Origin: Candidatus Omnitrophota bacterium
GTDB taxonomy: Bacteria > Omnitrophota > Gorgyraeia > Duberdicusellales > Duberdicusellaceae
Direction of reading: 5' to 3'
Length of the DNA: 64,000 nucleotides
Assembly (NCBI GenBank): GCA_016932855.1
Contig: JAFGCB010000024.1
Coordinates: 2,813 to 66,812, forward strand
The translations under genes and the position numbers were made by a program. The notes below the pieces were generated by a model that ran no database searches, had not been told where the DNA came from, and was given only the letters and a program-made list of their open reading frames with translations. Shown piece by piece: positions 9,604 to 33,998 of this stretch. Position 1 is the stretch's first letter; each line of letters opens with the position of its first letter.

Positions 9604-9613
9604 ATTATTTAGG

Positions 9614-13969: not shown

Positions 13970-13989
13970 TTTAATTCTTAATAAAATAT

Positions 13990-14021
13990 GTCACAAGGAT
14001 ACAAAGTCACAAGGTCACATG
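13990..14021. repeat. direct repeats GTCACAAGG x2(+half) upstream of tatD
   Basis: gtcacaagg ataca aagtcacaagg tcacatg read directly. Confidence 0.6.
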
Positions 14022-14031
14022 CGGCTTGTAA

Positions 14032-19524: not shown

Positions 19525-19542
19525 ACGCTAATTTCCGCGGAT
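19525..19542. repeat. intergenic motif A copy (ACGCTAATTTCCGCGGAT)
   Basis: 17/18 identical to the 8899 copy; immediately upstream of cysS. Confidence 0.55.
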
Positions 19543-19670
19543 TACAATGACAAATTTACACTAATTTTATTAGCCGTAATCCTTTTTAAGTTAACCCAGA
19601 TTATACCTTTTTTTTATCGGAGAATCAAGGTCGTTATAATCGGCAAAAACCATCTAGCACTATTCTCAAA

Positions 19671-19727
19671 TTCTTAAGAATATTGGAATAGTTAAGGGTG
19701 AATAAAGTATTCCAATATTCTTAAGAA
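19671..19727. repeat. perfect 20-bp inverted repeat (TTCTTAAGAATATTGGAATA / TATTCCAATATTCTTAAGAA) with 17-nt loop
   Basis: Read directly; a third partial direct copy TTGGAATAGCTAGG follows; lies between the stop of the downstream HK gene and the cysS upstream region. Confidence 0.8.
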
Positions 19728-19749
19728 CGTTGGAATAGCTAGGAATGGT

Positions 19750-21369
19750 TTAGGTAGACAAGGGTAAGGTTATTGTGAAGGTAGTGCCGTGGTTGGGCGT
19801 GCTTTCCACGTTTATCGTACCTTTATGGTTTTGGATTATTCCGTAGGTAATTGCCAGGCCAAGGCCGACGCCCTTTTCTTTCTTGGAGTAGAAAGCATCG
19901 AATATATGGGGCATATCCTCTTCTTTTATTCCTTTTCCTGTATCCTTTATCATTATAATAATGCTGTTTGTGTCCTGCAGCTTGTAGCCTGCAGCTGTAT
20001 TCAAGGTCGTTTCAACTACTATCTCTCCCCCATCCGGCATGGCATCTATAGCGTTTAATATTATGTTTAGAAAGGCCTGCTTAATTTGTTTTGAATCCAC
20101 CGAAACTTCGGGGATATCCTGGCAAAAGTTTTTCGCTAAGGAGATGTTTTGCTGTTTCAGTTTAATTTCGATTAATTCCAGGGTTTCCTCAAGAAGGTTG
20201 CGGACATTAGAAGGTTTAAGCTCTAAAGGCTTAGGAGAAGAAAATTCAAGGAGCTGTTTTACAATAGAGCCTATTCGGTCAAGTTCAGAAGGCACTATTC
20301 TTTTAAACTTCTTTCTAAATTCAGCATCAGCATATTTCTTATCAACATAATCAGCAAATGTCCTAATAGATGTTAAGGGATTCTTTATCTCATGAGCAAG
20401 CCCGGAAGCCATAGTCCCGGCAGCAGCAAGTCTTTCTGCCTGAAGAAGCTTAGCTTGGGTAGTCTGGAGCTCTTCTTGAAGAAGGGTTGTTCGGGAAAGC
20501 AAAAACCGCTCTGCCTTGCGTTGGAAATAGATGTATAGAAATGGACCAGCAGTTGCTAATACAAACATGCTTATTCCCATAGTGAGCCATGATTTTGTCT
20601 GATATCCTATGTAAAAAGGTAGTCCTAAAACGACAGTATACACTATAGTAAATATACTTACTCGAGTTGCAGCAATTTTAATGTCCATTAGTCGATATTT
20701 AATTATTGCATAAGTAATAAATAGTGGATAAAAACCAATCATTAAAATCGAATAAGGATATAAATGGATTCCAAAACTAGGCAAAAACTCGAATTCAGCT
20801 CCTATCCATCCTATCGTAACGCCAAGGATAAAGTATTTGAGCTGATTGCGTCGTATTCCAGTGGAGCGGTTATATGCTTTAATTATTAAGAAAAAATTAT
20901 AACCCAACAAAACCATGTAGAAGCCTACATAAAAAACTAAATAAATAATACTTTTTGTGTTAAGCCAGTCGTGCCAGTAGAATTGCTCAAAGATAAAGTT
21001 TAGTTTGCCTAAAAATAGGCGCGAGCGGCCATACCAATTTAAAAGTAGAAATAAAAAACTGAGTAGATAGATAGTTCGTATAAACCATTTCTTTTGAAGG
21101 CTTAAGTAGCGGATAACAAAGTGTGTGAAAAAAGCACAAACAAAAATCACGCCACTATAGCCAATTTGCCACCACAAGAGCGCTAAATTATATGATGTTT
21201 CAGGAAGACTCGAGGACACGCTACAGGCAAGTCCCCATAGACCACTAGATACCGCTACCCCGCTAAAAATTCTTGCAGAAGGGTTCTTTTTCCATTTGAG
21301 CAGAAGAAAAATCGCGATACCAAAGTTACTTACCGTGGTGATAATTGAAAATAGCGTAAAGAGCTTCAT
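19750..21369 (-). CDS. sensor histidine kinase with N-terminal 7TM sensor domain (HisKA_7TM-like)
   Basis: Multi-TM N-terminus with KYRLMDI motif shared with two paralogs; H-box LAHEIKNPLTSI; HATPase_c G-boxes; overlaps ispF by 4 bp. Confidence 0.8.
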   Translation of the reverse strand: MKLFTLFSIITTVSNFGIAIFLLLKWKKNPSARIFSGVAVSSGLWGLACSVSSSLPETSYNLALLWWQIGYSGVIFVCAFFTHFVIRYLSLQKKWFIRTIYLLSFLFLLLNWYGRSRLFLGKLNFIFEQFYWHDWLNTKSIIYLVFYVGFYMVLLGYNFFLIIKAYNRSTGIRRNQLKYFILGVTIGWIGAEFEFLPSFGIHLYPYSILMIGFYPLFITYAIIKYRLMDIKIAATRVSIFTIVYTVVLGLPFYIGYQTKSWLTMGISMFVLATAGPFLYIYFQRKAERFLLSRTTLLQEELQTTQAKLLQAERLAAAGTMASGLAHEIKNPLTSIRTFADYVDKKYADAEFRKKFKRIVPSELDRIGSIVKQLLEFSSPKPLELKPSNVRNLLEETLELIEIKLKQQNISLAKNFCQDIPEVSVDSKQIKQAFLNIILNAIDAMPDGGEIVVETTLNTAAGYKLQDTNSIIIMIKDTGKGIKEEDMPHIFDAFYSKKEKGVGLGLAITYGIIQNHKGTINVESTPNHGTTFTITLPLST

Positions 21370-21824
21370 TGAATAACAGCTACGCTAATGCAGAATAGGC
21401 ACTCTTTCCTGGCGGGGATTAGGCCTTCTTGAGATTTTACTTTGAGGTTGAGTTTAGTTTCAGGCAGTTTTAGGAGTTTGCAAAGGCTTTGCACTATTTT
21501 TTGTTTGAAGCTTTTAAGTTTCGGCCTTTCAAGGATTACGGTTATATCAATATTGTTTATTCTTCGCTTGCCGAGTAGTTTAAGGACTTTTTTAAGGATT
21601 TCTTTGCTTGAGATGCCTTTACATTTCGGGTCTTCCGGAGGAAAATAATCACCGATATCCCCTTTTCCTAATGCTCCTAATATGGCATCGCAGACACTAT
21701 GCAGTATTACGTCGGCATCAGAAATACCGGCTAAACCCTTTGTGTAAGGAATTTCCACCCCGCCAAGGATTAATTTTCTTCCTTTAACCAGTCTGTGAAC
21801 ATCGAAGCCGAGTCCAATCTTCAT
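21366..21824 (-). CDS. ispF: 2-C-methyl-D-erythritol 2,4-cyclodiphosphate synthase
   Basis: IGLGFDVHRL motif; 152 aa. Confidence 0.9.
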   Translation of the reverse strand: MKIGLGFDVHRLVKGRKLILGGVEIPYTKGLAGISDADVILHSVCDAILGALGKGDIGDYFPPEDPKCKGISSKEILKKVLKLLGKRRINNIDITVILERPKLKSFKQKIVQSLCKLLKLPETKLNLKVKSQEGLIPARKECLFCISVAVIQ

Positions 21825-21909: not shown

Positions 21910-24111
21910 CTACCGCTTTGTTGTTGGTAGTTCCATGTAAAAGGTTGAGCCCTTCATGTATTCCGATTCAAACCAGATTTTACCCCTGTGGTTTTCTTCA
22001 ACAATTCTTTTTATAACGTACATCCCAAGGCCGGTTCCGGATTTTGCCGATGATTTGGTGGTATAAAAAGGAGCGAACATCTTGGATTTATTCTCTTCGG
22101 CTATGCCGATCCCGTTATCACTGACTTTTACAAGCAAGGAACCTTCAAGAGGCTGTAATTCTATATTCAGCTCTTTTTCGACTTTTTGAGGATTTCCATG
22201 ATTTTTAAGAGCCATCTGCTTATCTTCTATTGCTTCATAAGCATTATCAATTAAGTTAAAAACTGCCTCGGATAGCTGGGCCGGCGAGCCCCAGACCTTG
22301 GGAGTACCGTCAGTAACTTTTATTGAAGGCTTAAAATCTTTGAGGTTATGCTTTACGCCTAAGAGGTCAACCGCAACGTTTATTATCTCGTTTATGTCGA
22401 AGAATCTAAAGGAAGCGTCTTTTTCAGTGCGGGCATAATTAAGAATTCCCCGGATAATCTGGGCTGAATGAAGCACGTTTTTTTCTATTTTATCAAGACC
22501 GTAGAGACAATATTCTAAATCCTTCCTTAAGTTTTCGGGGTTTTCTTTCTCAAGGGTAGTCTGCACTACGTCTTTTAAGTCTCCGGCAACCGCGGCAAAA
22601 GCCTGGAGACGGTTATTTAACTGGTGCGATACCCCTTCAGCCATAGCACCGACTGTAGCTAATTTATCAGCGTGGAATATCTTCTCCTGCGTTTTCTTAA
22701 ACTCTTCCAGAAACAAGCAGTTCTCAATTGCCAAAGAAGCCTGGTGCGCTAAAATCTTAAAGACATTTATATCATCCTCCGTAAAAACCTGCTTATTCGG
22801 TTTCGAGCCTAACGCTAATATGCCTAGAAGGTCTCTTTCGGTAAGTGAAGGGATTACTAAATGGAGCTTGAATCTTTCGAAAAATTCTTTAATTTCCTTT
22901 TGATTGGCGCTATCTTGAATAACAAAGGGGATATCTTCCAATAATAAAGCCTCTTGGGTTTTTAAAAGATATTCAATAATCGGATGGTCGTGAGAGATTG
23001 CAACCTCCTCTTTAAATAATTCTCTATCCCGGTAAGCTTCTAGTTTGTAAACCTTTCGTTCTTTGTCGAAACGGAATATCGCCGCTACATCGACCCGCAC
23101 AGCTTTCGTAACAATATGAACAATTAAATTGATAAGTCGTTTAAGTTCCCGAATTTTCACCATTCCCTGAGCAGCCTGGATTAGTGTTTTTTGGTATCTC
23201 TTTTGCTGGGCCAGTATAAGATTTTCAGCTTTCCTTCGTAAGCGTGTATAAATCAGAGGCCCGGTGCTTGCTAAAAGAAACATTATCGCAGTAGACGGAA
23301 GCCAGGATTGAGTGGTGTATCCTATCCAGAACGGAATACCGAGAACTAAGGCGTATACAAAAGAGAAAATTCCGAAGCGGGTCAAAACAACGTTGATGTC
23401 CATGAGACGGTATTTAAGTATTGCATAGGTAAATATCAAAGGATAGAGAACAATACAGAGGTTGCTATAAGGATAGAGTTTTACACCAATCTCTATTGAC
23501 CACATTAATATTGGACCTAGCCAGCCAATGACTGATGCAACTATGAAATATTTTATTTGATTTCGGAAAATGCCACTAGATCGCTTGTAAGATTTAACTA
23601 GTAATAAGAATGAGAATCCTAAAAGTATCCAGTAAAACGAAATGTAAAAAACCAAATATAGAGGTATTTTATATATCCACCAATCAGAGTAATAAAATTT
23701 ATTAAAAACAAAACTCATTCCGCCTACAAAATATTCCTTGGGGAAAAACAAATTTAGGGATAGGAAAGTGTAAGCCAGTGTATATATGGTAATTAATATA
23801 TATCTGAAATAATCCTTTTTGAGACTAAGGAATGTGTAGATGAAGTGATAATAAAGCACAGGAGTGAGGATAACTCCTATGTTGGCAATTCTCCGCCAGA
23901 AAATTGCAGTCTCAAGGTCAAAGGTTGTAGAGAATTTATATACACCTACGCCCCAAATTGTTGTGAGTATACATAGCCATCCCCAGATTTTAGTTTTAAT
24001 GTTACGAGTCTTTTTGTCTCTCCAGAACAAAAATATTGCCAATAGAGAATTGGTAACAACAACCAAAATTCCAGAAATGCTAAATAAGTTAATATTTTGC
24101 ATAAGAGGCAA
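21910..24111 (-). CDS. sensor histidine kinase, HisKA_7TM-like membrane domain + GAF + HisKA + HATPase_c
   Basis: 733 aa paralog of the 19750 and 34502 kinases; H-box GVSHQLNNRL; last gene of the lipid operon. Confidence 0.8.
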   Translation of the reverse strand: MPLMQNINLFSISGILVVVTNSLLAIFLFWRDKKTRNIKTKIWGWLCILTTIWGVGVYKFSTTFDLETAIFWRRIANIGVILTPVLYYHFIYTFLSLKKDYFRYILITIYTLAYTFLSLNLFFPKEYFVGGMSFVFNKFYYSDWWIYKIPLYLVFYISFYWILLGFSFLLLVKSYKRSSGIFRNQIKYFIVASVIGWLGPILMWSIEIGVKLYPYSNLCIVLYPLIFTYAILKYRLMDINVVLTRFGIFSFVYALVLGIPFWIGYTTQSWLPSTAIMFLLASTGPLIYTRLRRKAENLILAQQKRYQKTLIQAAQGMVKIRELKRLINLIVHIVTKAVRVDVAAIFRFDKERKVYKLEAYRDRELFKEEVAISHDHPIIEYLLKTQEALLLEDIPFVIQDSANQKEIKEFFERFKLHLVIPSLTERDLLGILALGSKPNKQVFTEDDINVFKILAHQASLAIENCLFLEEFKKTQEKIFHADKLATVGAMAEGVSHQLNNRLQAFAAVAGDLKDVVQTTLEKENPENLRKDLEYCLYGLDKIEKNVLHSAQIIRGILNYARTEKDASFRFFDINEIINVAVDLLGVKHNLKDFKPSIKVTDGTPKVWGSPAQLSEAVFNLIDNAYEAIEDKQMALKNHGNPQKVEKELNIELQPLEGSLLVKVSDNGIGIAEENKSKMFAPFYTTKSSAKSGTGLGMYVIKRIVEENHRGKIWFESEYMKGSTFYMELPTTKR

Positions 24112-25566
24112 TTATTTTCCAAATGGCCAATGTTTTCCGAGGTCTTCCAGGATTAACCGTGCGCATCGTCGTCCAGAAAATGCAACATTTGGGATACCGC
24201 CTTGCCCGGAAGAACCAGTGGTTGTCCAGTGGCCAACGAGATAGATCCCATCTATAGAAGTTCGTTGCGGAATAATATTAGATTTAATCTGGTTTAATGT
24301 AGATACCCATCCGAGTACGGCTCCGTTTTTATTTAAGGTGTACCGATGAAATGTATGCGGAGTGGCAAATATTTTGACGTCAATTAAATTACGGAGATCG
24401 TAAAAGACCTTCTCCGATTTTTTAATTATGCGATTGCCGACCTCTATTTTATTCTCATCCCAGAATTTCTTGGAAATATAAGGAGAATATATAAATAGTT
24501 GCATGGTCGGCCTATTGGTGTTGCTTAAGCTTATGTCATGAGCAGATGGGAAACAGCAGAAAAAGTAATCGAGGTCAGCGTTCAATATGTTATATTGCTG
24601 AGAATAAATTCTTGAGTACACTTTCTCGATATCGTAAGTGGCGAAATAGCAAGTATTTATTCTTTCAGCAATTTCATTGTGCGCGTTTTCTTTGAGACCT
24701 AAATATACCAAGAACATAGACGGAGATGGAGTTAGTTTATTAATTGTGTTAAGTTCCTTAGTTTTGACATCAATCAGGTCTCCGAATGTCATGGAAACGT
24801 CTGCATTCGAGATAATTATGTTAGATGCTATTTCATCGCTAGTATCTAGTATTACCTTTTTGATTTTATTAGTTGTAATTATCTTTACAACCTTGCGGGA
24901 GAAAATTATCTCTCCTCCTCGCTCTTTTAATTTCTTTACTAGCATATTTGGCAGAGTTTGAATGCCACCTTTTGGATAATAGCCAGAATCCAAAACATAC
25001 TCTCGAAATAGAATTATAGCTGAGATAGCTGCGGCTTTTTTAGGAGAAAGTGCAATATTACTTGATAGGCCACCTAAAACAGATTTTAGATTTGGATCTC
25101 GAAAAAAATAATCCAGGGTTTCTTGAAAGACTTGTCCCTTAACTTTTTTATAAATATTAAAAAGCTGTTCTTGCAGAATGAAGCCGAAAAACTTTTCAAG
25201 ATTTTTTCGTTCTTTAGGGAAGCTTTTTTGAAATTCCGTTAGTGTATTTTTGGGACAAGCCCGAATGTATGTAGTATTATCGGGGAATATTATTTTATCA
25301 GTTGGATCAGCTTGGGAAAATTCGAGGCTTTCGTCCATTTGTAGCTCTCGGAGAGTTTTGCCTAATATTCCTCGCTTGATGCCGCCTAGGTAGTGTACTC
25401 CAATGTCAAATTTATAACCCTTTCGTTCAAAAGAAGTGCAGTAGCCACCTGGTTTATCATGCTTTTCGATGATTAAAACCTTTAATCCGGCTTTTGATAA
25501 ATAATTTGCGCAGATTAAGCTTCCAATGCCAGAACCTACGAATATTGCATCAAATTGGGTGTTCAT
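24112..25566 (-). CDS. FAD-dependent oxidoreductase, phytoene desaturase (CrtI)-like family
   Basis: N-terminal dinucleotide-binding fold FDAIFVGSGIGSL...LIIEKHDKPGGY; 484 aa. Confidence 0.7.
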   Translation of the reverse strand: MNTQFDAIFVGSGIGSLICANYLSKAGLKVLIIEKHDKPGGYCTSFERKGYKFDIGVHYLGGIKRGILGKTLRELQMDESLEFSQADPTDKIIFPDNTTYIRACPKNTLTEFQKSFPKERKNLEKFFGFILQEQLFNIYKKVKGQVFQETLDYFFRDPNLKSVLGGLSSNIALSPKKAAAISAIILFREYVLDSGYYPKGGIQTLPNMLVKKLKERGGEIIFSRKVVKIITTNKIKKVILDTSDEIASNIIISNADVSMTFGDLIDVKTKELNTINKLTPSPSMFLVYLGLKENAHNEIAERINTCYFATYDIEKVYSRIYSQQYNILNADLDYFFCCFPSAHDISLSNTNRPTMQLFIYSPYISKKFWDENKIEVGNRIIKKSEKVFYDLRNLIDVKIFATPHTFHRYTLNKNGAVLGWVSTLNQIKSNIIPQRTSIDGIYLVGHWTTTGSSGQGGIPNVAFSGRRCARLILEDLGKHWPFGK

Positions 25567-26153
25567 TTAATGTAGTTAACGCTGTCTTTTATTGGCTTTC
25601 GGAGAGATCGTGTATTTCTCTGGCTCGCGTATCCGAGTGTGATTACAGCAACCATTTTGCCTTTGTGTCTAAGCAATTTATTTATTTTCTGTGCTTGAAG
25701 TAACGGCGTATCAAGCCAACAAGAGCCAACCCCAAAACTTTCCGCTACTAACATCATATTTTGTATAGCTGCGGCGATGGCGGACAGTTCAACAATATCA
25801 AGGATTCGCTCAAATTTTAAGTACAGTTGCTTGAGTCTGTGTCTCATTGCGTGCATATCTCCAGAATTATAAACAATAATGATGGCTGCCGCGCTACGAA
25901 TTATATTGCTTGCAGAATACTCTAGCAGATTGGATACTGTCTTCGTAGAGGAATCGGCTCTTAATAAAAGTTGAGCAATCTCAACTATAGTTTTTTTGTT
26001 AGTTATCGCGAAGAACTTCCATGGTTGGTAATGATGAACGGCAGGTCCCCATATTCCAGCTTCAATAATTTTCGAGAGAATATTATGAGGTATTCGTTTT
26101 TTCTTATATTCTCGTACACACTGTTTAGACTTTATTAAGCGTAATAATTCCAT
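25563..26153 (-). CDS. nitroreductase family protein
   Basis: 196 aa; N-terminal RIPHNILSKIIEAGIWGPAVHHYQPW nitroreductase-like; 4-bp overlap with the downstream gene. Confidence 0.6.
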   Translation of the reverse strand: MELLRLIKSKQCVREYKKKRIPHNILSKIIEAGIWGPAVHHYQPWKFFAITNKKTIVEIAQLLLRADSSTKTVSNLLEYSASNIIRSAAAIIIVYNSGDMHAMRHRLKQLYLKFERILDIVELSAIAAAIQNMMLVAESFGVGSCWLDTPLLQAQKINKLLRHKGKMVAVITLGYASQRNTRSLRKPIKDSVNYIK

Positions 26154-27241
26154 CTTTTTTCCCCGATTATATCATAAATCGACTTTTGTTCATGGTAATA
26201 TTGAAACGACGGCAATAATTTTTGATCAGTGATCTGTGGAATTCGGAAATTATAACCATCAAGAGTTTTTTGTGTATGTATATAACAGAATTTTGTTGTA
26301 TAGTTAAAGTAGGGTATATATGGTGATGCTAAGATTTTTTGCGCAGGAGTCCAATAAGAATAATCAAACCTCTCAGCCGGTATTAGCCTCGGTGTTCGAA
26401 ATTGAAAAAAACGCGAGGCCAAATCCATGAATTTACCAACATTAAAGGGTTTTGGCGAAACAACATGATAAGTAGTATTGCTGCCCTGATCCCCTAGTAA
26501 AAAAAATACTTTTGCCACTGTATCGATGTTGATTAGATTTTGGTGACAATCAATGTTGATAGGAAACTCATTGTAGATCTCTTTGGAAAAAAAACGAATC
26601 GGTTCGTAGAAAAGTCGGAAAGTGGTGGCTTGGCCAGTCTTGGAATGCCCTATAACCATACTAGGTCTAAAAACAGAAATATTCAGTCCTTTTACGCGAT
26701 AGTCTTGGACTAAAAGCTCGGCTTCATATTTTGTCTGTTCGTAGGTGTTGTTAAATCCCTGGCCGAGCTCTAATTCGTTCTCTCTAAAGTTATAGTCATT
26801 TTTTGTCCCTACTACGTATGCTGTGCTTATATGGTTAAACTTTTCAAGCTTCGGGAATTTCAAAGCGAAATCAAGAACATTTTTTGTGCCCAGAACGTTT
26901 ATTTTTCGGATTACTTCGAGTTCAACTCTTAATTTTGCCAGGGCTGCGCTGTGAAAGATTATTTCGCAATCAGCGCGAATCTCGTCGATTAATTGTTTTG
27001 ACTTTATGCCTAAGTCGGTTAAGGTAATATCGCCATCGACTATTACCAGGTTTTTTGGACTTTGGCTGGTATGTTCTTCAGTCCAGAATTTTAGGGCATT
27101 TAATACTCGCGCCCGCGCAGCTTCTTTTTTACTGCTTCTTGCCAGAGCATAGACTTTACAGCCATTCTCAAGCAGGATTTTTAAAAGATAAGAAGCAACA
27201 AATCCGGTTGCCCCGGTCAATAATACAATTCGTTTTTCCAT
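26135..27241 (-). CDS. thioester reductase-domain (NAD_binding_4, fatty acyl reductase-like) protein
   Basis: LLTGATGFVASYLL Rossmann motif, catalytic YEQTK, alternating CLVR/GDI/HSAA blocks typical of terminal reductase domains. Confidence 0.7.
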   Translation of the reverse strand: MEKRIVLLTGATGFVASYLLKILLENGCKVYALARSSKKEAARARVLNALKFWTEEHTSQSPKNLVIVDGDITLTDLGIKSKQLIDEIRADCEIIFHSAALAKLRVELEVIRKINVLGTKNVLDFALKFPKLEKFNHISTAYVVGTKNDYNFRENELELGQGFNNTYEQTKYEAELLVQDYRVKGLNISVFRPSMVIGHSKTGQATTFRLFYEPIRFFSKEIYNEFPINIDCHQNLINIDTVAKVFFLLGDQGSNTTYHVVSPKPFNVGKFMDLASRFFQFRTPRLIPAERFDYSYWTPAQKILASPYIPYFNYTTKFCYIHTQKTLDGYNFRIPQITDQKLLPSFQYYHEQKSIYDIIGEKRWNYYA

Positions 27242-27256
27242 TACAGTTCGCTAAGT

Positions 27257-28480
27257 TTATTTGTTATTTAAGCTGCCAAATACCACACAACAATTATTTC
27301 CGCCAAACGCAAAGCCGTTATTTAGGACAATTTTTACTTCTTTTTTTCTAGCCGTATTAGGCACACAATCTATATCACATTCAGGGTCAGGGGTTTCATA
27401 ATTTATTGTGGGCGGGATTAGGCTATTTTCAATAACCAAGCAGCAGACTGCCGCCTCAATCGCCGAGGCTGCGCCCATAGGATGACCAAGCATTGATTTA
27501 ACGGAACTTACAGGAACTTTATAATCCGCGAAGACATCTTTTATAGCTGCGCATTCAACTTTGTCGTTAGTTGGGGTTCCGGTGCCATGGGCGCAGATAT
27601 AATCTACATCCCTGGTAGATAAACCAGCGTCTTTAATCGCCTTTTTCATCACATTCGCAACTCCTTTTGGGTCAGGAGCGGTTATGTGGTAGGCATCACA
27701 GGACAGACCATACCCTAAGACTTCCGCGTATATTTTGGCGTTTCGTTTAAGAGCTGATTCTAAAGACTCCAGAAGTATTACTCCCGCGCCTTCTCCTAAA
27801 ATTAAGCCCTTTCGGTTTTTATCAAACGGCTGGGGTTTTTCAGGGGCCATGCTGTAAAGGCGTTGAAAGCCGACATAGGCGACATGAGAAAAGGCTTCGG
27901 CGCCACCGGCAAGTATAAAATTTAAGTCTCCTTTTCTGATTAAATCATATCCATAGCCGATAGCGTAATTTCCGGCAGCGCAGGCAGTGGGGATTAAGCA
28001 ATTTAATCCCATTGCCTTAAATTGTATCCCGACATTAGCCGGGATATTGTGAACTGCTGCCTGAAGGACTCTTGTCCGGTCAACCTCTTTAAGCCCGCCT
28101 TTTGCCCAGGATTCTATCAATTCTTCCATTGGACGTTCGCCTACCGTAGTCCCGAAGATAATTCCGAATTTTTTTGAGTCGATAGCCGAAGGGTTGAGTT
28201 TCGCGTCTTCCAAGGCCAGATGAGCACCGGCTATCGCCAGCTGCGAGGTTTTCCCGAGAAACCTTGTTTTTCGTTTCGGGATAAAGGCGGCAGGATCAAA
28301 ATCTTTTATTTCACCTCCGTATTTGCAACGAAAACCTTCGGTATCAAAGGAGGTAATTTTACTTACCCCGGATTTTCCGGCGGTCAAGGCTTTCCAGAAA
28401 CCATCTTTCCCTGTTCCGATTGACGATATTACTCCCAGTCCGGTTACAACTATACGTCTTTTATTCCTCATATTTTGCAA
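27257..28480 (-). CDS. beta-ketoacyl-ACP synthase II-like, catalytically intact
   Basis: Active-site Cys in PTACAAG; both His present (CAHGTGT, MLGHPMG). Confidence 0.85.
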   Translation of the reverse strand: MQNMRNKRRIVVTGLGVISSIGTGKDGFWKALTAGKSGVSKITSFDTEGFRCKYGGEIKDFDPAAFIPKRKTRFLGKTSQLAIAGAHLALEDAKLNPSAIDSKKFGIIFGTTVGERPMEELIESWAKGGLKEVDRTRVLQAAVHNIPANVGIQFKAMGLNCLIPTACAAGNYAIGYGYDLIRKGDLNFILAGGAEAFSHVAYVGFQRLYSMAPEKPQPFDKNRKGLILGEGAGVILLESLESALKRNAKIYAEVLGYGLSCDAYHITAPDPKGVANVMKKAIKDAGLSTRDVDYICAHGTGTPTNDKVECAAIKDVFADYKVPVSSVKSMLGHPMGAASAIEAAVCCLVIENSLIPPTINYETPDPECDIDCVPNTARKKEVKIVLNNGFAFGGNNCCVVFGSLNNK

Positions 28481-29732
28481 TTATCGCGCTGGCGTTTCCT
28501 CCACCGGGGCCAAAATTGTTTATTAAAATATTATTAAGGGATTCATGCCTAGCTGAGTTAGGAACGTAATCAAGGTCACATCCGGATGCATTTCCTTCAA
28601 AATTTATTGTAGGAGGGATAACCGCATTTTTTAAAGCTCCTATAGAGGCCGCAATTTGTAATCCTCCATTGGCGCTTACGCTTTCACCGATCATTGACTT
28701 AATCGAGCTTACCGGGATGCTTTTCGAATAAAGTTTAAAGACTTTTTTTATGGCTTCAGTTTCAAGCGTATCCTGCACAGGGACTGAATTGGCAGAGGCG
28801 CAGATGTAGTCTATCTCTTCGGTATTAAGCTCTGCATTCTCTATTGCTCTTGTCATACTTTGGATAAGTCCCTCGGCCTTAGGGGCGTATTTACCGGTTT
28901 TGTAGGCGTCAAAAGAATTTTCAACGCTAAGAATTTCCGCCAGGATATTCGCCTTGCGTTTTTGAGCATATTCTTTATTTTCAATAACCAACGTCGTTGT
29001 TCCTTCGCCGAGAACTATGCCGTTATGTCTTTTATCGTAAGGACAGCTGATTTCAGGGCCTTTTAATCCGGCAAGAAATCCGATTTTATAAAATCCGGTA
29101 AAGTTGGAAAAGGAGAAGCTTTCAATCCCGCAGACAAGAACGATTTGAGCCCGGCCCAGTCTTATCAAATCAATAGCATACTTAAGGGCGTCAAGACCGG
29201 CTGTATAGCCGGTAGATATAGTCGTGTTGAAAGCCCTTGCTTTAAATCGTATAGACAACTGACTGGATGGAAAATTCATGGTAGTAGGCGGAAATAAAGC
29301 CGGGTTAACAAGCTGGGCTCCTTCGTCTACTTGTTCTTTAGTAAATTTTGCCAGATCCGAGGTAATTGAAAGCGTAGTCGCGGTTACCACTCCGATATCG
29401 TCAGCATTCTCGTCGGTTATCTGCAAGTTTGCGTCATCTAAGGCTAATTTTACTCCGGAGCAGAGCAGGGTTGTAGTGCGGTCAAGATTTCTTAAACCCT
29501 TAGTGCCTAAAAAATCTTCAGCTTTGAAATCAGTACATTCTCCGGCAGTTTTAGTCTTAAAAAAGGAGACATCAAAAAGAGTTATGGGTTTAATTCCCGA
29601 TTGGCCAGCATTGAGCGCTTTCCAAAAGGCTTCCTTGCCTGTTCCGTTAGGAGAAATAACACCGATTCCGGTAACTACGACTTGTTTGGCGTTCATTTTT
29701 TTACGTATCCAGGTTTCGTTCAATAATTTCAA
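28461..29732 (-). CDS. ketosynthase-like partner lacking catalytic residues (chain-length-factor-like)
   Basis: KS fold, but Cys replaced (ISTGYTAG) and both His replaced (CASANSV, MIGESVS); 20-bp overlap with the catalytic KS. Confidence 0.75.
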   Translation of the reverse strand: MKLLNETWIRKKMNAKQVVVTGIGVISPNGTGKEAFWKALNAGQSGIKPITLFDVSFFKTKTAGECTDFKAEDFLGTKGLRNLDRTTTLLCSGVKLALDDANLQITDENADDIGVVTATTLSITSDLAKFTKEQVDEGAQLVNPALFPPTTMNFPSSQLSIRFKARAFNTTISTGYTAGLDALKYAIDLIRLGRAQIVLVCGIESFSFSNFTGFYKIGFLAGLKGPEISCPYDKRHNGIVLGEGTTTLVIENKEYAQKRKANILAEILSVENSFDAYKTGKYAPKAEGLIQSMTRAIENAELNTEEIDYICASANSVPVQDTLETEAIKKVFKLYSKSIPVSSIKSMIGESVSANGGLQIAASIGALKNAVIPPTINFEGNASGCDLDYVPNSARHESLNNILINNFGPGGGNASAIIAKYEE

Positions 29733-30078
29733 GAAATTCGTTTGTATCGAACGGTTTATGCAGGTAGCCGGCGACTTTTAAGTTGACTGCCGATTTGTAT
29801 TTATCTTCGTCCACAAAACCGGTAATGAAAACTTCGGGAATCGGTGCTTTTCCCTGTTTTTGGCGAAAGTCACGAATTGACTTTATGGTTTCTATGCCGT
29901 CCATCTCCGGCATTCGTATATCGCAGACTATCATATGGAAATCGTCATTTTGAATCTTCGTAAGAGCATCCGCTCCCCCGTAAGCAATCGTTACCTCATA
30001 GCCTTTCTCTTGGAGTAATTTTTGCAGACTTTTCGTTATAATTTTCTCATCCTCGATTATTAAGATTTTATTTTTCAT
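29701..30078 (-). CDS. single-domain response regulator (CheY-like receiver)
   Basis: 125 aa; acidic pocket IEDE and phospho-Asp in VCDIRMPEMDG; embedded in the lipid operon. Confidence 0.8.
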   Translation of the reverse strand: MKNKILIIEDEKIITKSLQKLLQEKGYEVTIAYGGADALTKIQNDDFHMIVCDIRMPEMDGIETIKSIRDFRQKQGKAPIPEVFITGFVDEDKYKSAVNLKVAGYLHKPFDTNEFLEIIERNLDT

Positions 30079-30548
30079 TATACGCCCCTTTTGTTATTTT
30101 CTTTTAATTTGACTCCGAAAAAAATACGCGCTCGCGCCACTACTTCGTTTTCGACTAAGGCACGGGCTTCGACCATCCCGCTATTATTAAGGATTTTTGC
30201 GGCATTGACTTCTAGAGTCAGCTGGCTACCTGCGGATACAGGCTTAAGGAAATGCGCGTCGACTTTTCCAAGATAATACGACGGTTTTTTATTGGCAATA
30301 TCAGGTTTAAGGACGGAATAAAGGATAATGCTTGCTTGGGCCAGAGCTTCGATGATTATGGCGCCGGGAACAACGGGGTTTTTCGGGAAATGCCCCTGAA
30401 AGAAATGTTCGTTGTAGGAAAAATTTTTCAGGCACTTTATTTTTTTATCCTTTTCGTTAATTTCGGTCACTCTATCGATAAATAAAAACGGATAGTCTTG
30501 GGGAAGAATTGCTTTGATTTGTTCGATATCCCAAATCGCACTCATCAT
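30078..30548 (-). CDS. 3-hydroxyacyl-ACP dehydratase, FabZ/FabA hot-dog family
   Basis: HFFQGHFPKNPVVPGAIIIEALAQ catalytic His motif. Confidence 0.8.
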   Translation of the reverse strand: MMSAIWDIEQIKAILPQDYPFLFIDRVTEINEKDKKIKCLKNFSYNEHFFQGHFPKNPVVPGAIIIEALAQASIILYSVLKPDIANKKPSYYLGKVDAHFLKPVSAGSQLTLEVNAAKILNNSGMVEARALVENEVVARARIFFGVKLKENNKRGV

Positions 30549-30797
30549 TCATTTGTTTAGTGACTTTAAGACAACTTCATATACATTCTCTAGAGACCGT
30601 ATATTCGGTATTTCTTCTTCAGGTATGGTTACTTTATATTTCTTTTCAATGCTGGCTACAATTTCTAATGCCATCATGCTGTCTACGCCCAGCTCGTCGG
30701 CAAAGCTGGCATCATCACGAAGCTCACTTTCGGGCATTTCCACGATCTCCGAGACAGCCTTTTTTATTTCTTTTTTGATTTGTTCAGGCTTGGCCAT
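30549..30797 (-). CDS. acyl carrier protein
   Basis: 82 aa; phosphopantetheine attachment site DLGVDSMMALE. Confidence 0.85.
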   Translation of the reverse strand: MAKPEQIKKEIKKAVSEIVEMPESELRDDASFADELGVDSMMALEIVASIEKKYKVTIPEEEIPNIRSLENVYEVVLKSLNK

Positions 30798-30815
30798 AGG
30801 CCTCCTTTCTTTAAA

Positions 30816-31565
30816 TTAAATTGCCAATCCTCCGTCGATCTTTATAACTTCACCTGTTATGTATTCAGATTCACCGGAAGCAAGAAACGCGCAGAGGTTT
30901 GCAACTTCGTTTGCGGTCCCCATCCTTTTTACTGGTATATTTTCGATTATCTTTTTTTTGACATCATCGCGTAAAGCGGTGACCATCTCCGTGGCGATAT
31001 ATCCGGGGCATATGGTATTGACTCGGATATTGTATGACGCAATTTCTTTTGCCAGGGCTTTCGAAAAGCCGATTATGCCGGCCTTTGAAGCGCAGTAATT
31101 AGTTTGCCTTGGCGTTCCTGTTAAACCGCTAACAGAGCTGATATTTAGGATACATCCGCTTTTTTGTTTAAGTAGAGTAGTAATGCAGGCTCTTGTCATA
31201 TTGAATGTGCCGTTTAGGTTTGTATCAATGACGTCTTTCCAGTCTTCCAGGGTCATCATCATTAAGGCTTTATCTTTTATTATGCCGGCATTATTTATTA
31301 AAATATCGATTTTCCTGAAATTATCAAGGGTTTTAGTGACTATTTCCCGGCATTGACCATAGTCGCGTACATCTGCCTGTAAGCTTAAATGCTTACATTG
31401 GCAAGTTTTTAGTTTTTTGGCTAATTCTTGGGCTTCGTCTTTACTTTTAGCGTAGGTAAAGACTACATTTGCACCTAGCTGTGCAAAGAGTTCGCAACAG
31501 GCCCGGCCTATTCCGCGAGAGCCACCGGTAATTATAGCAGTCTGATTTTTAAGCGTTTTTTCCAT
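30816..31565 (-). CDS. fabG: 3-oxoacyl-ACP reductase (SDR)
   Basis: TGGSRGIGRA cofactor motif; NAG, S..YxxxK catalytic residues. Confidence 0.85.
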   Translation of the reverse strand: MEKTLKNQTAIITGGSRGIGRACCELFAQLGANVVFTYAKSKDEAQELAKKLKTCQCKHLSLQADVRDYGQCREIVTKTLDNFRKIDILINNAGIIKDKALMMMTLEDWKDVIDTNLNGTFNMTRACITTLLKQKSGCILNISSVSGLTGTPRQTNYCASKAGIIGFSKALAKEIASYNIRVNTICPGYIATEMVTALRDDVKKKIIENIPVKRMGTANEVANLCAFLASGESEYITGEVIKIDGGLAI

Positions 31566-31664
31566 AAATTTCTTTAGGTCTTAATTATCTCACTGCAAAA
31601 AAGATATGTAAAGCTTATATTTTCATAGCGTTACGCAAAAAAATGTCTATTCGAATACCGCGTT

Positions 31665-33017
31665 TTATTCCTTCGTCACAATAAAAAAATAAATGTAGCC
31701 GAAGTTGTCAGATTCCAGTATAAGTGCTGAATTTGGAATTCCTGAATCAAGAAATAACTTTCTTACGTCATCCTTTGTTCGGGAGACAAATTTCCAGTCG
31801 CAAAACCAATCCGGGCAAATAGGCGGAATGGTCTTTTCACGATTTTTATGAGTCATTATTATTTTACCATTTTTTTCCAATACCTGAAACAAGGCAAAAA
31901 TGAGCTTTTTTAGGACTCTATCCGGCAAATAGTCAATGAGTCCTATGCTGTAGATTAAGTTTTGTTTTACGGGCAGGTGAGCGATCTGTTTATTTCTTTC
32001 AATATTAACCCCTTGTAGGTGCGAAAAGTGAAATTTAATATTCGGAAACTGCTGGTTAGCAAAAGCCTCGGCTGAGAATTTCAAGGCTTCGCCATCCCAA
32101 TCAAGGCATCTGAAAATCACTGTTTTTTCAGTTTTAAGGCTGAGTAAAAGTTCTCTTATTTCTCTGCAGCAGCTGCAGGCAATGCTTAGAATATGTACCG
32201 GTGAAGCTGGAGTTTCGTGAATAAACTCGGTAATAAGGTTTTTAAGGCGGTCTTTACGTGACCGGGCAGCTACCGCGTAAGGGCTTTTTAGAAAAATGTT
32301 ATCGAAATAAAGACCTATATTTTGGGAAACAGGTTTATTTGAATAAATAAATTCAAGAGCCCGGTGGTCTTCGGAATAGCCCCGGGGTTTGTCAAAGGCC
32401 TGTTTTACGATAATGCTTTTATATATCCAGGCGTCTACCAGGCGCCGGAAGTTGTCTTTAATCCGCTGGGTAGTCTTTTTATCGGCAAGAATAAGCTCCA
32501 GGCTGTAACCTTTTAAGAGGATTTTATTATTTAATTGTTCTATAATAGATTCTAATTCAGGTAGATAGGTTTTGTCGGTATAGGTGCCGGGAATAAGACG
32601 GGTTATTTCAGTTATATATTCAAACATATCTTTGGTAAAAAAATCCCGGACCAATAATCTAGCATCAGATTTCCTAATATCTCGAAGAAGTTGGCTTATT
32701 TGAGCTTTGATTAATTCCTTTCTTAAAGACGTTTTTTCATTTTCGTTAAGTCCGGTAAACTCGAGGCCATAGATGGTGTTGCCGTTATCGACAGTTTTTC
32801 GCCAGGCAAGTTTAGCGGTAGTTTTTATTTTAGAGGTTTTACCGGGGAAATTTATTTGTAAGGAGATTTCCGGACTCGATATCACTTGCGATGCGACAAA
32901 ACTTACCCCTCCTTCGCTTAGGTCAATCGAATCACCCGCGCTTTTAGGGGAAAATTTGAGTTTTAAGTTTGCCTTTATTCTGGGATAAGCCCGTTTTTCC
33001 TGGTAATTTTTATTCAT
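31665..33017 (-). CDS. PilZ domain - class I SAM-dependent methyltransferase-like fusion protein
   Basis: N-terminal RAYPR...DLSEGG PilZ motifs; C-terminal ILSIACSCCREI / LDWDGE / IYSIGLIDYL resemble MTase motifs I, post-I and II. Confidence 0.5.
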   Translation of the reverse strand: MNKNYQEKRAYPRIKANLKLKFSPKSAGDSIDLSEGGVSFVASQVISSPEISLQINFPGKTSKIKTTAKLAWRKTVDNGNTIYGLEFTGLNENEKTSLRKELIKAQISQLLRDIRKSDARLLVRDFFTKDMFEYITEITRLIPGTYTDKTYLPELESIIEQLNNKILLKGYSLELILADKKTTQRIKDNFRRLVDAWIYKSIIVKQAFDKPRGYSEDHRALEFIYSNKPVSQNIGLYFDNIFLKSPYAVAARSRKDRLKNLITEFIHETPASPVHILSIACSCCREIRELLLSLKTEKTVIFRCLDWDGEALKFSAEAFANQQFPNIKFHFSHLQGVNIERNKQIAHLPVKQNLIYSIGLIDYLPDRVLKKLIFALFQVLEKNGKIIMTHKNREKTIPPICPDWFCDWKFVSRTKDDVRKLFLDSGIPNSALILESDNFGYIYFFIVTKE

Positions 33018-33057
33018 ACGCTAATTTACGCTAATTATAAAGCTAATTTCCGCGAAT
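33018..33057. repeat. intergenic motif A copies (ACGCTAATTT, ACGCTAATTA, AAGCTAATTTCCGCGAAT) with ~10-bp phased GCGAAT/ACTAAT units
   Basis: Read directly; repeat-rich spacer 33018-33124 upstream of the PilZ-MTase gene. Confidence 0.6.
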
Positions 33058-33124
33058 CAAGATGCGAATTTAAAGCGAATTTACACTAATCTACGACGAA
33101 TTAAGACTAATAATACATATCACA

Positions 33125-33577
33125 TTAAACGCTTGAATAAGCATTTCGCGAAGAGGAGATAATTCTTTTTTTATCCAGAATTCTGCGCCTTATATCGATT
33201 TTTGTAGCGCCAAAGTTGATTATATATCCTAATTTATAATTCGTACCTTTTAAGTAATTGTATAGCTGAGTTTCATAGAATTTCGGCATAATTTCCACGG
33301 CTTTTATTTCTATGATAATTTTCTTATCAATAATGAAGTCCGGGGTATAATAACCCGCAGTTTTGTTTTTGTACTTTATCGGAATGCGCCTTTCTTCTTC
33401 GTGCGTAATATTTTTAAGCGCGAATTCGATTGTCAGCGCCTTACGGTAAACCGATTCCTTAAAGCCCGGTCCAAGTTCATTATAAACTTCAAAGAAACAG
33501 CCCACAATATCATAGGAAAGGTCCTTATATAATAGATTCTTGCAATTTTTACTCTTTATACGCATAGAATTTTTCAA
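33125..33577 (-). CDS. GxxExxY family protein (PD-(D/E)XK nuclease-like fold)
   Basis: IVGCFFEVYNELGPGFKESVYRKAL signature; 150 aa. Confidence 0.75.
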   Translation of the reverse strand: MKNSMRIKSKNCKNLLYKDLSYDIVGCFFEVYNELGPGFKESVYRKALTIEFALKNITHEEERRIPIKYKNKTAGYYTPDFIIDKKIIIEIKAVEIMPKFYETQLYNYLKGTNYKLGYIINFGATKIDIRRRILDKKRIISSSRNAYSSV

Positions 33578-33617: not shown

Positions 33618-33998
33618 TTAAATAATAGTTTTTTTAATCGCCTCTAAAAGCACTGCGTTGTCAAAAGGTTTGTATAAATGCTCTGCTACTTTTAGTTTCA
33701 TCGCTTCCTGGTATTTCTCCATATCAGCATAACCTGTTATTAAAATCTCAGGGATTTGCTTCTTTTTTGCTTTATTTAAGTAGCTGCGGATTTGTTTAAT
33801 TATTTCAATGCCGTCCGCCTCGGGAATTCTGATATCGCAGATAATAAGATTAAAATCAGTTTCCTTTATTTTTTCTAAAGCTTCTTTCCCGCTTTGAGCA
33901 ATGCTTGTTTCATAGCCCGAGGTTTTTAAAAGCATGGATACGCTCTTTGTTACCAGCTCTTCGTCGTCAATCAATAGAATTCTTTTGCTCATAATCAA
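33618..33998 (-). CDS. single-domain response regulator (CheY-like receiver)
   Basis: 126 aa; clear paralog of the 29701 RR (ICDIRIPEADGIEIIKQIR...ILITGY). Confidence 0.8.
   Translation of the reverse strand: MIMSKRILLIDDEELVTKSVSMLLKTSGYETSIAQSGKEALEKIKETDFNLIICDIRIPEADGIEIIKQIRSYLNKAKKKQIPEILITGYADMEKYQEAMKLKVAEHLYKPFDNAVLLEAIKKTII

Follow-up and report, generated by a model that had tools for sequence, protein, structure and literature searches.

What does a fatty acid synthesis-like operon make when one of its ketosynthases (KSs) has lost its catalytic residues and membrane sensor kinases are encoded around it? We examined this question for a locus in a 64,000-nucleotide (nt) stretch of a "Candidatus Omnitrophota" contig (JAFGCB010000024.1, positions 2,813 to 66,812; assembly GCA_016932855.1), here called the window. 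All coordinates are positions in the window, and all genes of the locus are on the minus strand. The original prediction placed eleven tightly packed genes at 21910-33017, and their coordinates, domains, and spacing were borne out, with every domain call backed by Pfam. In order, they encode a PilZ-methyltransferase (MTase) fusion, a ketoreductase (KR), an acyl carrier protein (ACP), a dehydratase (DH), a single-domain response regulator (RR1), a dead KS that resembles a chain-length factor (CLF), a catalytic KS, a thioester reductase (TR), a nitroreductase-family protein (NTR), a CrtI-family oxidoreductase, and a HisKA_7TM sensor kinase (HK1). The 99-nt gap between the MTase and KR genes is the sole wide junction. 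Smaller gaps separate KR from ACP (18 nt), RR1 from the dead KS (4 nt), and KS from TR (15 nt); ACP-DH and CrtI-HK1 abut with zero spacing, and the remaining pairs overlap (DH-RR1 by 1 nt, dead KS-KS by 20 nt, TR-NTR by 19 nt, and NTR-CrtI by 4 nt).

Every open reading frame (ORF) was compared locally in 89 surveyed loci (L001 to L089). About 20 Omnitrophota contigs carry the same set of genes, and the arrangement is therefore not due to chance. The boundaries first drawn were too narrow: a protein that joins an SRPBCC (START-like) domain to an acyl-ACP reductase (AAR)-like domain, an acyltransferase, a B12-binding radical S-adenosylmethionine (rSAM) enzyme, an HTH_17 protein, two further kinases (HK2 and HK3), and a second receiver (RR2) also belong to the conserved locus. 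It extends from about 40584 to 19750, starting with the HTH_17 gene, including ispF, and ending with a third HisKA_7TM kinase. Catalytic and binding motifs are intact in the KR, DH, ACP, TR, acyltransferase, rSAM enzyme, both receivers, all three kinases, and the PilZ domain.

Tentatively, and with slightly less than even confidence, we read these genes as a specialized chain-building module, related to the anammox amxFabF system and to highly reducing type II polyketide synthases (PKSs), within a conserved, sensor-controlled Omnitrophota lipid locus that makes a modified membrane lipid. The cluster is an undescribed variant of the amxFabF-type KS/CLF clusters, which are known but functionally uncharacterized, and it is set apart by a sensor-kinase frame that includes two acyl-ACP reductases.

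A KS/CLF pair distinct from housekeeping fatty acid synthesis

The partner of the catalytic KS had been predicted to lack catalytic residues, and the alignment agrees: Tyr, Lys, and Ser stand at the positions of KS Cys167, His298, and His333. The two proteins are 38% identical paralogues encoded by overlapping genes and thus form an adjacent KS/CLF-type pair. In a sequence search of the PDB, the best solved relatives of the KS were amxFabF2 from anammox bacteria (9s5h_B, 468.3 bits), Iga11 (367.5 bits), and Bacillus subtilis FabF (325.9 bits), and that of the dead KS was amxFabFmut (9s5h_C, 338.8 bits). Identity to the anammox pair is 50 to 56% for the KS and 40 to 44% for the dead KS; within the anammox clade, KSs share 70 to 95%. 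The KS shares with amxFabF2 the residues A164, F203, M337, and F394 of the tunnel and gate, and residues F135, T138, and V139 of the amxFabFmut tunnel correspond to F, T, and T in the window protein. Crystallographic and biochemical work showed that amxFabF2 and amxFabFmut pair as a KS/CLF-like heterodimer. This heterodimer decarboxylates malonyl-ACP and catalyzes the formation of acetoacetyl-ACP, and its nearest structure is Iga11 (bioRxiv 10.64898/2026.05.19.726425).

In a neighbor-joining tree built without support values, the KS and CLF clades each lie far from canonical FabF on a long branch and have parallel topologies. The window pair falls in a clade of Omnitrophota, Planctomycetia, Nitrospirota, and Desantisbacteria sequences that adjoins the anammox clade as its sister. 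By NCBIfam scores, PDB matches, and the tree, the pair does not group with ordinary FabF.

One alternative explanation is that this is simply the housekeeping fab operon of the organism with unusual neighbors. The KR exceeds the FabG equivalog cutoff, the DH exceeds that of FabZ model NF000582 (133.6 versus 113 bits; it is below that of TIGR01750, 133.3 versus 155.15), and no other fab genes were found in the 64-kb window. However, the KS (429.6 bits) and dead KS (334.9 bits) both fall below the 493.75-bit cutoff of the FabF equivalog TIGR03150, and the ACP falls below that of the AcpP equivalog TIGR00517 (43.2 versus 70.45 bits). One KS partner lacks the catalytic triad, a long branch separates FabF from the KS/CLF clades, and fabH, fabD, enoyl reductase (fabI), and plsX are absent from the locus and from the rest of the window. 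A related Omnitrophota metagenome-assembled genome (MAG; L037) carries a KS/CLF cluster about 8 kb from a canonical plsX-fabH-fabD-fabG-acpP-fabF operon, whose FabF fragment scores 537.3 bits although truncated and whose ACP scores 127.5 bits. Having both, L037 rules out the cluster as the only fatty acid synthase (FAS) of the phylum. The predicted dedicated, non-housekeeping ACP/KS/KR/DH set is upheld by these scores and by the separate operon of L037; housekeeping FAS is an unlikely identity for the cluster, and we give it almost no credence.

The ACP and DH also point to the anammox system. Solved relatives of the ACP are led by amxACP (7qv0_D, 7auf_A, and 9s5i_E), and those of the DH are led by amxFabZ (7qv0_A and 8ayb, 119.5 bits), followed by another FabZ at 98.9 bits. 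The amxFabZ signature consists of Ile69, Ser/Thr96, and Val/Ile115 in place of Gly, Lys/Arg, and Arg/Lys (PMC10139942). At these columns, the window DH has Ile69, Leu96, and Leu115, so that position 96 is nonbasic yet not Ser/Thr. A bulky residue at position 69 is common to almost the whole KS/CLF cluster family, and the signature is hence not specific to anammox bacteria.

Relationship to anammox Cluster I

We scanned one genome per species with two KS motifs and recovered more than 579 loci. Brocadiales KSs are 70 to 95% identical to amxFabF2. Those of Omnitrophota, non-anammox Planctomycetia, Nitrospirota/Thermodesulfovibrionales, Acidobacteriota, Desulfobacterota, Desantisbacteria, and an actinobacterial MAG are 53 to 60% identical. 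Across the 89 surveyed loci, the recurrent core consists of CLF, KS, ACP, and DH, usually with a KR and very often with a CrtI-like gene.

The gene order had been judged not to match the known aryl polyene or classical aromatic type II PKS layouts, which overstated its distance from known systems. Its core is homologous to anammox Cluster I, the antiSMASH "ladderane-type" cluster, and to highly reducing type II PKSs. Cluster I (KustE3603-3608) encodes amxACP, amxFabZ, amxFabF2, amxFabFmut, a phytoene dehydrogenase homologue (PDH), and a B12 rSAM enzyme, and was described as unique to ladderane producers (bioRxiv 10.64898/2026.05.19.726425). The window shares with it the KS/dead-KS family, the dedicated ACP, an Ile69 FabZ with nonbasic residues at 96 and 115, the CrtI-like neighbor, and the lack of an enoyl reductase (ER). 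The CrtI-like enzyme is 34% identical to the Brocadia Cluster I PDH (264 bits), with the same subthreshold crtI_fam/carot_isom profile. Gene order differs (ACP-DH-KS-CLF-PDH-rSAM in anammox bacteria versus KR-ACP-DH-RR-CLF-KS-TR-NTR-CrtI-HK in the window), and Cluster I is missing the KR, TR, NTR, AAR fusion, acyltransferase, kinases, and receivers of the window. The window host is not an anammox bacterium, and the rSAM enzymes of the two systems are not orthologous; the gene beside the window CrtI-like gene is not an rSAM gene.

Counterparts of all six Cluster I gene types occur in the window within a span of 17 kb, which could mean that the locus makes ladderanes or ladderane-like cyclobutane lipids, as proposed for Cluster I. 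The presumed ring-forming enzyme argues otherwise. The window B12 rSAM protein is only 36% identical to that of Cluster I, lies 11 kb away in the other sub-operon, and has no counterpart in the majority of Omnitrophota copies. At 43 to 54% identity, this protein is closer to more than 120 protein clusters drawn from Omnitrophota, Elusimicrobiota, Actinobacteria, and a Lokiarchaeon. Its TIGR04072 score is 80 bits against a cutoff of 360, and the Brocadia enzyme likewise scores about 80 to 90 bits; on identity and score, we rejected the window protein both as an orthologue of the Cluster I enzyme and as a member of TIGR04072. In addition, the shared core is found in many phyla without known ladderanes. 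Syntenic FAS-like clusters and dead FabFs were reported earlier from deltaproteobacteria and Rhodopirellula, and a deltaproteobacterium with such a cluster contained no ladderanes (PMC2649909). Even in anammox bacteria, the link between Cluster I and ladderanes has not been shown experimentally (bioRxiv 10.64898/2026.05.19.726425). A ladderane product is accordingly unlikely for the window cluster, and we regard it as very improbable.

Complete Cluster I-like sets (ACP-DH-KS-CLF-CrtI-rSAM) were also observed outside the Brocadiales KS clade, in a deltaproteobacterial MAG (L036, 9085-18376) and a Planctomycetota MAG (L057, about 9000-15243), with rSAM proteins 58% identical to the Brocadia enzyme; L036 has three tandem rSAM paralogues. 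These sets are at odds with the description of Cluster I as unique to ladderane producers. Previous surveys noted antiSMASH "ladderane" calls in Omnitrophota MAGs (PMC9902471) and catalogued KS-CLF pairs from "Candidatus Omnitrophica" (PMC10132072); like the work on deltaproteobacteria and Rhodopirellula, they did not analyze the cluster itself.

Predicted reductive release and the lipid-type enzymes

The reductase downstream of the KS was confirmed to be of the thioester reductase type and not a sugar epimerase. It scores higher against NAD_binding_4 (PF07993; Table 1) than against Epimerase (PF01370, 76.8 bits), and its best solved relative is the reductase domain of MxaA (4u7w, 94.6 bits). 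Its translation contains the GxxGxxG and YxxxK motifs, and its TIGR01746 score (144.6 bits) is below the 213.35 cutoff. Membership of the oxidoreductase in the CrtI family also held, based on its Pfam domains, its scores against crtI_fam (145.2 bits) and carot_isom (142.9 bits), both below cutoff, and its match to CrtI (4dgk, 84.7 bits). A CrtI-like gene next to the KS/CLF genes recurs across phyla. For the NTR, the solved relatives are structural-genomics entries alone, and the PDB search returned none for the PilZ-MTase. An aldehyde or alcohol of a fatty or polyene chain is a plausible candidate product of this enzyme set.

The TR-NTR pair is kept in L001-L003, L085, and L087. Elsewhere, a third, very divergent KS-like protein (435 to 437 amino acids [aa], 25 to 29% identical to the KS) was observed in its place between KS and CrtI (L035, 6168-7481; L051, 15092; L077, 7629; L079; L086, 13139-14446), which suggests two alternative ways of finishing the chain.

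Of all proteins in the locus, the SRPBCC-AAR fusion is conserved best. It has full-length matches in more than 120 protein clusters at 65 to 73% identity, which is tighter than for the KS/CLF pair, and all clusters that carry a taxon name (most carry none) are from Omnitrophota; this conservation argues for a role in core physiology. The AAR profile aligns over model positions 2 to 335 of 339, within the C-terminal 350 residues, and the score lies below the AAR equivalog cutoff (183.9 versus 449.7 bits); the N-terminal domain of PigE scores 187.7 bits. In an AlphaFold (AF2) model (pLDDT 77.7), the best fold match is cyanobacterial AAR (6jzy/6jzu; E value, 2.6e-23; 30% identity; TM score, 0.80), and the N-terminal domain matches START/ARO-CYC (aromatase-cyclase) folds. 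Cys456 is invariant and is a candidate catalytic residue, located where the AAR nucleophile is expected. By analogy, the fusion may work like an AAR, although it is outside the AAR equivalog. It differs from cyanobacterial AAR in this score, in its fusion to SRPBCC, and in the lack of a partner: no ferritin-like aldehyde-deformylating oxygenase is encoded in the locus, and the host is presumed to be anaerobic. The best public match to the fusion protein is 72 to 73% identical, with no identical copy, though the CLF and rSAM proteins of the window match proteins of a "Candidatus Omnitrophica" MAG at 100%. Since its ORF runs intact over the full length, the gene may have been missed or annotated differently in the public entry.

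The acyltransferase gene adjoins the SRPBCC-AAR gene in all relatives examined. Its HX4D motif is HASFLD (residue 40), and the protein resembles the acyl-ACP:phospholipid O-acyltransferase domain (NF006386, 98.7 bits). The combination of acyl-thioester reductase, ACP, and PlsC/AGPAT-type acyltransferase recalls the logic of alkyl ether lipid synthesis by myxobacterial ElbD and eukaryotic FAR1/GNPAT (PMC9131029). Unlike ElbD, the parts in the window are separate proteins, loading would be by KS/CLF and not by an acyl-AMP ligase, and there is no AGPS homologue.

A chain built without an ER could also be a conjugated polyene, serving as a pigment or protective lipid, made by a highly reducing type II PKS, released as a polyenal or polyenol, and anchored by the acyltransferase. 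With the ishigamide (Iga10-13/16) and cispentacin (Amc) systems, the window shares the type of KS/CLF heterodimer, discrete ACP, KR, and DH proteins, and the absence of an ER. Iga11 is second among solved relatives of the KS, and there are subthreshold matches to AmcB, AmcE, and AmcF. A CrtI-family enzyme would fit polyene isomerization or desaturation. Aryl polyene (APE) clusters contain an aryl starter ligase, a second ACP, an ApeR KS, a thioesterase, a glycosyltransferase, and LolA/MMPL export genes, and they too include an acyltransferase. The locus resembles them in its KS/CLF (ApeO/ApeC-like logic), KR, DH, and acyltransferase, and the DHs of its relatives match ApeI/ApeP-like Pfam families. 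Unlike APE clusters, the window lacks the remainder of this set: Pfam and NCBIfam searches of the genes at 19750-42652 found no aryl-starter adenylating enzyme, second ACP, ApeR-type KS, or LolA/MMPL protein, and the thioesterase and APE-layout glycosyltransferase are also missing. The window KR resembles FabG and the DH resembles FabZ, release is predicted to be reductive, the context is one of membrane lipids and sensors, and amide-forming or cyclizing enzymes are lacking, unlike in the ishigamide and Amc systems. In the tree, Iga11 is nearer the base, among deltaproteobacterial KSs and apart from the window clade. Habitats of these bacteria are mostly dark and anoxic, where photoprotective pigments would be less expected. 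Based on this balance, we consider a polyene product improbable.

A conserved frame of sensor kinases and receivers

The module sits in a frame that is shared by its Omnitrophota relatives. Upstream, the order is HTH_17, sometimes an AAR paralogue, the PlsC-like acyltransferase, SRPBCC-AAR, a variable slot, a HisKA_7TM kinase, and a receiver; the middle contains often a small selfish gene, a receiver, and then KR, CLF, ACP, DH, and KS in varying order. TR-NTR or the third KS-like gene follows, then the CrtI-like gene, a HisKA_7TM-GAF kinase, and a receiver, and the frame ends with an HD-GYP-type protein, a glycosyltransferase similar to monogalactosyldiacylglycerol (MGDG) synthase, and an LpxL-like acyltransferase. 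The window holds the upstream half at 40584-33618. The string HTH_17-acyltransferase-AAR-kinase-receiver … kinase is kept in L001, L004, and L085-L089. In L001-L003 and L086, the MGDG-synthase-like and LpxL-like genes are directly downstream of the cluster. The variable slot holds a B12 rSAM gene (the window, L088, and L089), an MTase fusion, a TR-like gene with a formyltransferase, or an unknown gene. Homologues of the PilZ-MTase, matching in the MTase domain, lie inside the clusters of L004, L089, and the Nitrospirota/Thermodesulfovibrionales loci L058-L060, L071, L074, L076, and L080. In L088 (12030-15074), the frame (HTH-AAR-acyltransferase-SRPBCC/AAR-rSAM-kinase-receiver … kinase) is kept and the KS/CLF module is replaced by two 4HBT thioesterases, a PEMT/ICMT-like methyltransferase, and a class I methyltransferase.

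The original prediction also singled out a receiver embedded in the biosynthetic operon. The gene is real and conserved. RR1 has Asp53, Thr85, and Lys108 and is packed between the DH and the dead KS; its orthologues are 46 to 60% identical, as conserved as the enzymes, and lie directly before KR or CLF in L001, L004, and L085-L087, overlapping the next gene in three of these five relatives. The 32-nt overlap with the dead KS gene that had been implied did not stand and becomes a 4-nt gap. It depended on a TTG start at 29732 (423 aa), for which an exact look-up was empty; the public annotation starts the protein at an ATG at 29696 (411 aa), 4 nt past the receiver stop codon.

RR2 is 50% identical to RR1. 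HK3 aligns almost end to end with PrsK-type kinases, below cutoff, and is in an orthologous position in L001, L004, and L085-L089. The position of HK1, after CrtI or NTR, is matched in L001, L004, L035, L067, L079, and L085-L087. HK2 is 39% identical to HK1 over the 7TM region, and in L067 the KS and TR genes flank an HK2-like kinase gene. HTH_17 homologues head the locus in L001, L051, L067, L068, L075, L084, and L086-L089; the HTH_17 protein, encoded by the first gene of the upstream sub-operon, is a candidate transcriptional output. The RAYPR and DLSEGG motifs of cyclic di-GMP (c-di-GMP) receptors are intact in the PilZ-MTase.

Such a frame raises the main alternative to a membrane lipid, a self-contained signaling circuit in which a short- or medium-chain unsaturated aldehyde, alcohol, or methyl ester, either diffusible or membrane resident, is sensed by the flanking 7TM kinases, with output through single-domain receivers, receiver-HD-GYP proteins, and PilZ. 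Known analogues are DSF (RpfF/RpfC/RpfG), 3-OH-PAME (PhcB/S/R), and CAI-1/LAI-1 (Cqs/Lqs). In RpfF/C/G, PhcB/S/R, CqsA/S, and LqsA/S/R, genes for a fatty acid-derived product lie beside a multi-transmembrane (multi-TM) kinase, a receiver, and HD-GYP or PilZ parts, and the likeness of our locus to them is architectural only; no similarity of its synthases to RpfF, PhcB, CqsA, or LqsA emerged, though no search aimed at it was made. Multi-TM kinases and receivers bracket the synthase genes in about 13 Omnitrophota loci and in 3 loci of Planctomycetia. Downstream of the cluster, L001-L004 and L085-L086 encode HD_5 (HD-GYP-type) proteins, fused to a receiver in L004, and the window encodes a PilZ domain. 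Ile69 of the DH and the C6 to C8 preference of the anammox homologues point to short chains, the AAR domain scores equally well against PigE, tailoring genes vary between close relatives, and the exchange in L088 for thioesterases and methyltransferases recalls PhcB. On the other hand, the PlsC-type acyltransferase and SRPBCC domain are invariant in the frame, and known lipid-signal synthases need neither. The SRPBCC-AAR fusion is tightly conserved across the phylum, unlike the usual patchiness of signaling systems, and the locus encodes no exporter. Many Omnitrophota are thought to be tiny and host associated, and quorum-type signaling is not obvious there. We therefore consider a signaling circuit rather doubtful, though a serious competitor.

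Proposed pathway and product

A modified membrane lipid remains our preferred product, and the pathway may run as follows. The KS/dead-KS heterodimer would prime itself, as its anammox homologue does, by decarboxylating malonyl on the dedicated ACP and would then elongate the chain, with the FabG-like KR and amxFabZ-like DH processing every round. With no ER encoded, the chain would stay unsaturated or borrow FabI; the NTR/CrtI-like flavoprotein pair is the best candidate for double-bond reduction, isomerization, or desaturation. Judging from family membership and intact motifs, the MxaA-like TR and the SRPBCC-AAR fusion would convert acyl-ACP to an aldehyde or alcohol. The HX4D acyltransferase may put the acyl chain on a glycerolipid, and the B12 rSAM enzyme and PilZ-MTase may add methyl or C-C modifications. 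Control would be exerted by the three HisKA_7TM kinases, the two output-less receivers, the HTH_17 protein, and c-di-GMP via PilZ, as the conserved frame suggests. The end product would most likely be a modified membrane lipid; our leading guess is an alkyl/ether-type or unusually tailed lipid. We favor a membrane lipid because the frame invariably includes the acyltransferase and the lipid-binding reductase fusion, both of them very tightly conserved, because several relatives have glycolipid and lipid A-type acyltransferase genes downstream of the locus, and because Omnitrophota MAGs are rich in ElbD-type ether-lipid matches (93 of 267 MAGs; bioRxiv 10.1101/2024.06.25.600576).

Several points weigh against this interpretation. 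The anammox DH and KS/CLF prefer C6 to C8 substrates on their own ACP (bioRxiv 10.64898/2026.05.19.726425; PMC10139942), and Ile69 argues for the same range in the window DH (PMC10139942), which is short for a membrane tail. The amxFabF KS/CLF tunnel accommodates C12 to C16 (bioRxiv 10.64898/2026.05.19.726425), so that tunnel residues suggest, by analogy, chains of about C6 to C8 or shorter for the DH versus C12 to C16 for the KS/CLF. Neither an AGPS-like or PlsA/R-like protein nor any other enzyme known to form ether bonds is encoded in the locus. Close relatives vary in their tailoring genes, both at the TR-NTR or third-KS position and in the variable slot (rSAM, MTase, and others), a kind of variation that typifies signals or secondary metabolites more than bulk lipids, and the adjacency of kinases and synthase could reflect sensing of a diffusible product. 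The proposed roles of the NTR, CrtI, rSAM, and MTase proteins are family-level analogies, and the canonical FAS of the host genome is presumed from relative L037, the scope here being the 64-kb window. Our literature search found no lipid data for Omnitrophota: queries combining the phylum with fatty acid or ketoacyl terms returned incidental mentions only, and those for Velamenicoccus lipids and for 9S5H returned nothing useful.

A broader form of the lipid interpretation is possible, and we hold it as a minority view. Here, the "ladderane" core would be an ancient, multiphylum module for short or unsaturated acyl chains that was captured in Omnitrophota by a self-regulating circuit making alkyl/ether-type lipids by a route undescribed in bacteria. 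Ladderane-specific chemistry in anammox bacteria would then reside in the few unshared genes, chiefly the B12 rSAM gene of Cluster I. The 7TM kinases would sense lipid state or the product, and the output-less receiver, translated together with the synthase, would gate it at the protein level.

Genomic setting

The genes of the locus are listed in Table 1. On both sides are ordinary core genes whose order is old and conserved, and base composition is unremarkable. Positions 18103-52470 retain the string mcsA-mcsB-clpC … radA-PIN/TRAM-ispD-ispF-cysS, known from Firmicutes, with an mlaEFD set between clpC and radA and the ∼20-kb locus lying between ispD (41966-42652) and ispF. Relatives have different neighbors (pantothenate kinase, NAD synthase, and gatCAB), indicating that the locus has moved. 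An ORF between ispD and the HTH_17 gene (40716-41405, 229 aa) has a lipoprotein-like N terminus and zero Pfam or NCBIfam matches.

Table 1. Genes of the locus in the order in which they are read on the minus strand
Gene product	Coordinates	Strand	Support
HTH_17/excisionase-family DNA-binding protein, 61 aa	40399-40584	-	TIGR01764, 61.9 bits (cutoff 28.8)
PlsC/Aas-type acyltransferase, 198 aa	39802-40398	-	PF01553, 81.4 bits; HX4D motif
SRPBCC (START-like)-AAR-like fusion, 522 aa	38244-39812	-	TIGR04058, 183.9 bits
B12-binding rSAM enzyme with DUF4070, 489 aa	36710-38179	-	Pfam; CxxxCxxC at residue 177
Sensor kinase HK3 (HisKA_7TM, [GAF], HisKA, HATPase)	34502-36697	-	Pfam; H-box AHEINNPL
Single-domain response regulator RR2	33618-33998	-	PF00072, 89.8 bits
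GxxExxY PD-(D/E)XK protein	33125-33577	-	TIGR04256, 127.8 bits
PilZ + class I SAM methyltransferase fusion	31665-33017	-	Pfam (PilZ, Methyltransf_20)
FabG-type KR (adh_short/KR)	30816-31565	-	TIGR01830, 305.9 bits (cutoff 297.75)
ACP, DSM serine motif	30549-30797	-	PF00550, PP-binding
FabZ-type DH	30078-30548	-	Pfam FabA/FabZ
Single-domain response regulator RR1	29701-30078	-	PF00072, 91.5 bits
Dead KS, CLF-like	28461-29696 (TTG ORF start 29732)	-	ketoacyl-synt N and C domains
Catalytic KS	27257-28480	-	ketoacyl-synt N and C domains
Stand-alone TR	26135-27241	-	NAD_binding_4, PF07993, 185.7 bits
Nitroreductase-family FMN protein (NTR)	25563-26153	-	PF00881, 88.5 bits
CrtI-family FAD oxidoreductase	24112-25566	-	Amino_oxidase/NAD_binding_8
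Sensor kinase HK1 (HisKA_7TM, GAF, HATPase)	21910-24111	-	Pfam; H-box SHQLNNRL
IspF (housekeeping MEP pathway), between HK1 and HK2	21366-21824	-	PF02542, 182.6 bits
Sensor kinase HK2 (HisKA_7TM, HisKA, HATPase)	19750-21369	-	Pfam; 4-nt overlap with ispF

Directly after the HK2 stop codon lies a hairpin with near-perfect 47-nt arms (19647-19751; -43.7 kcal/mol; z = -9.6), and a U-run comes next; this structure probably either terminates the long transcription unit or represents a repeat element. Among sigma-70-like matches in the region, the best (40654-40626) is just upstream of the HTH_17 gene, and another promoter-like match (31612-31584) is in the 99-nt gap upstream of the KR. Both are consensus matches alone, and since promoter and terminator scans gave counts no higher than in shuffled sequence, we treat such single sites as leads. 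A 41-nt direct repeat (73% identical) is located at 19527-19567 and 33042-33082, just upstream of the cysS and PilZ-MTase start codons, and may be a shared regulatory element or chance.

Where the two sub-operons meet, the GxxExxY gene probably represents an insertion unrelated to the locus. In relatives, we observed that this junction gathers differing small selfish or defense-type genes, such as HEPN/nucleotidyltransferase pairs, AbiE, GIY-YIG, and toxin-antitoxin genes (L085, 13066-14092; L086, 7600-8854; L087, 3079-3351; L089, 7164-7997).

Implications

The amxFabF-type proteins have been studied as unique to ladderane producers, and close relatives with the same diagnostic residues occur outside anammox bacteria. 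Because these residues are shared by many phyla, the common core is unlikely to be what makes the ladder, and the search for that chemistry narrows to the genes that are not shared. Omnitrophota are a widespread, uncultured phylum, and this locus, with two acyl-ACP reductases and an acyltransferase, is a candidate for an undescribed pathway to alkyl/ether or modified-tail lipids. A KS/CLF operon bracketed by 7TM kinases, with a receiver packed against the synthase, is an unusual design that could exemplify lipid homeostasis or signaling.

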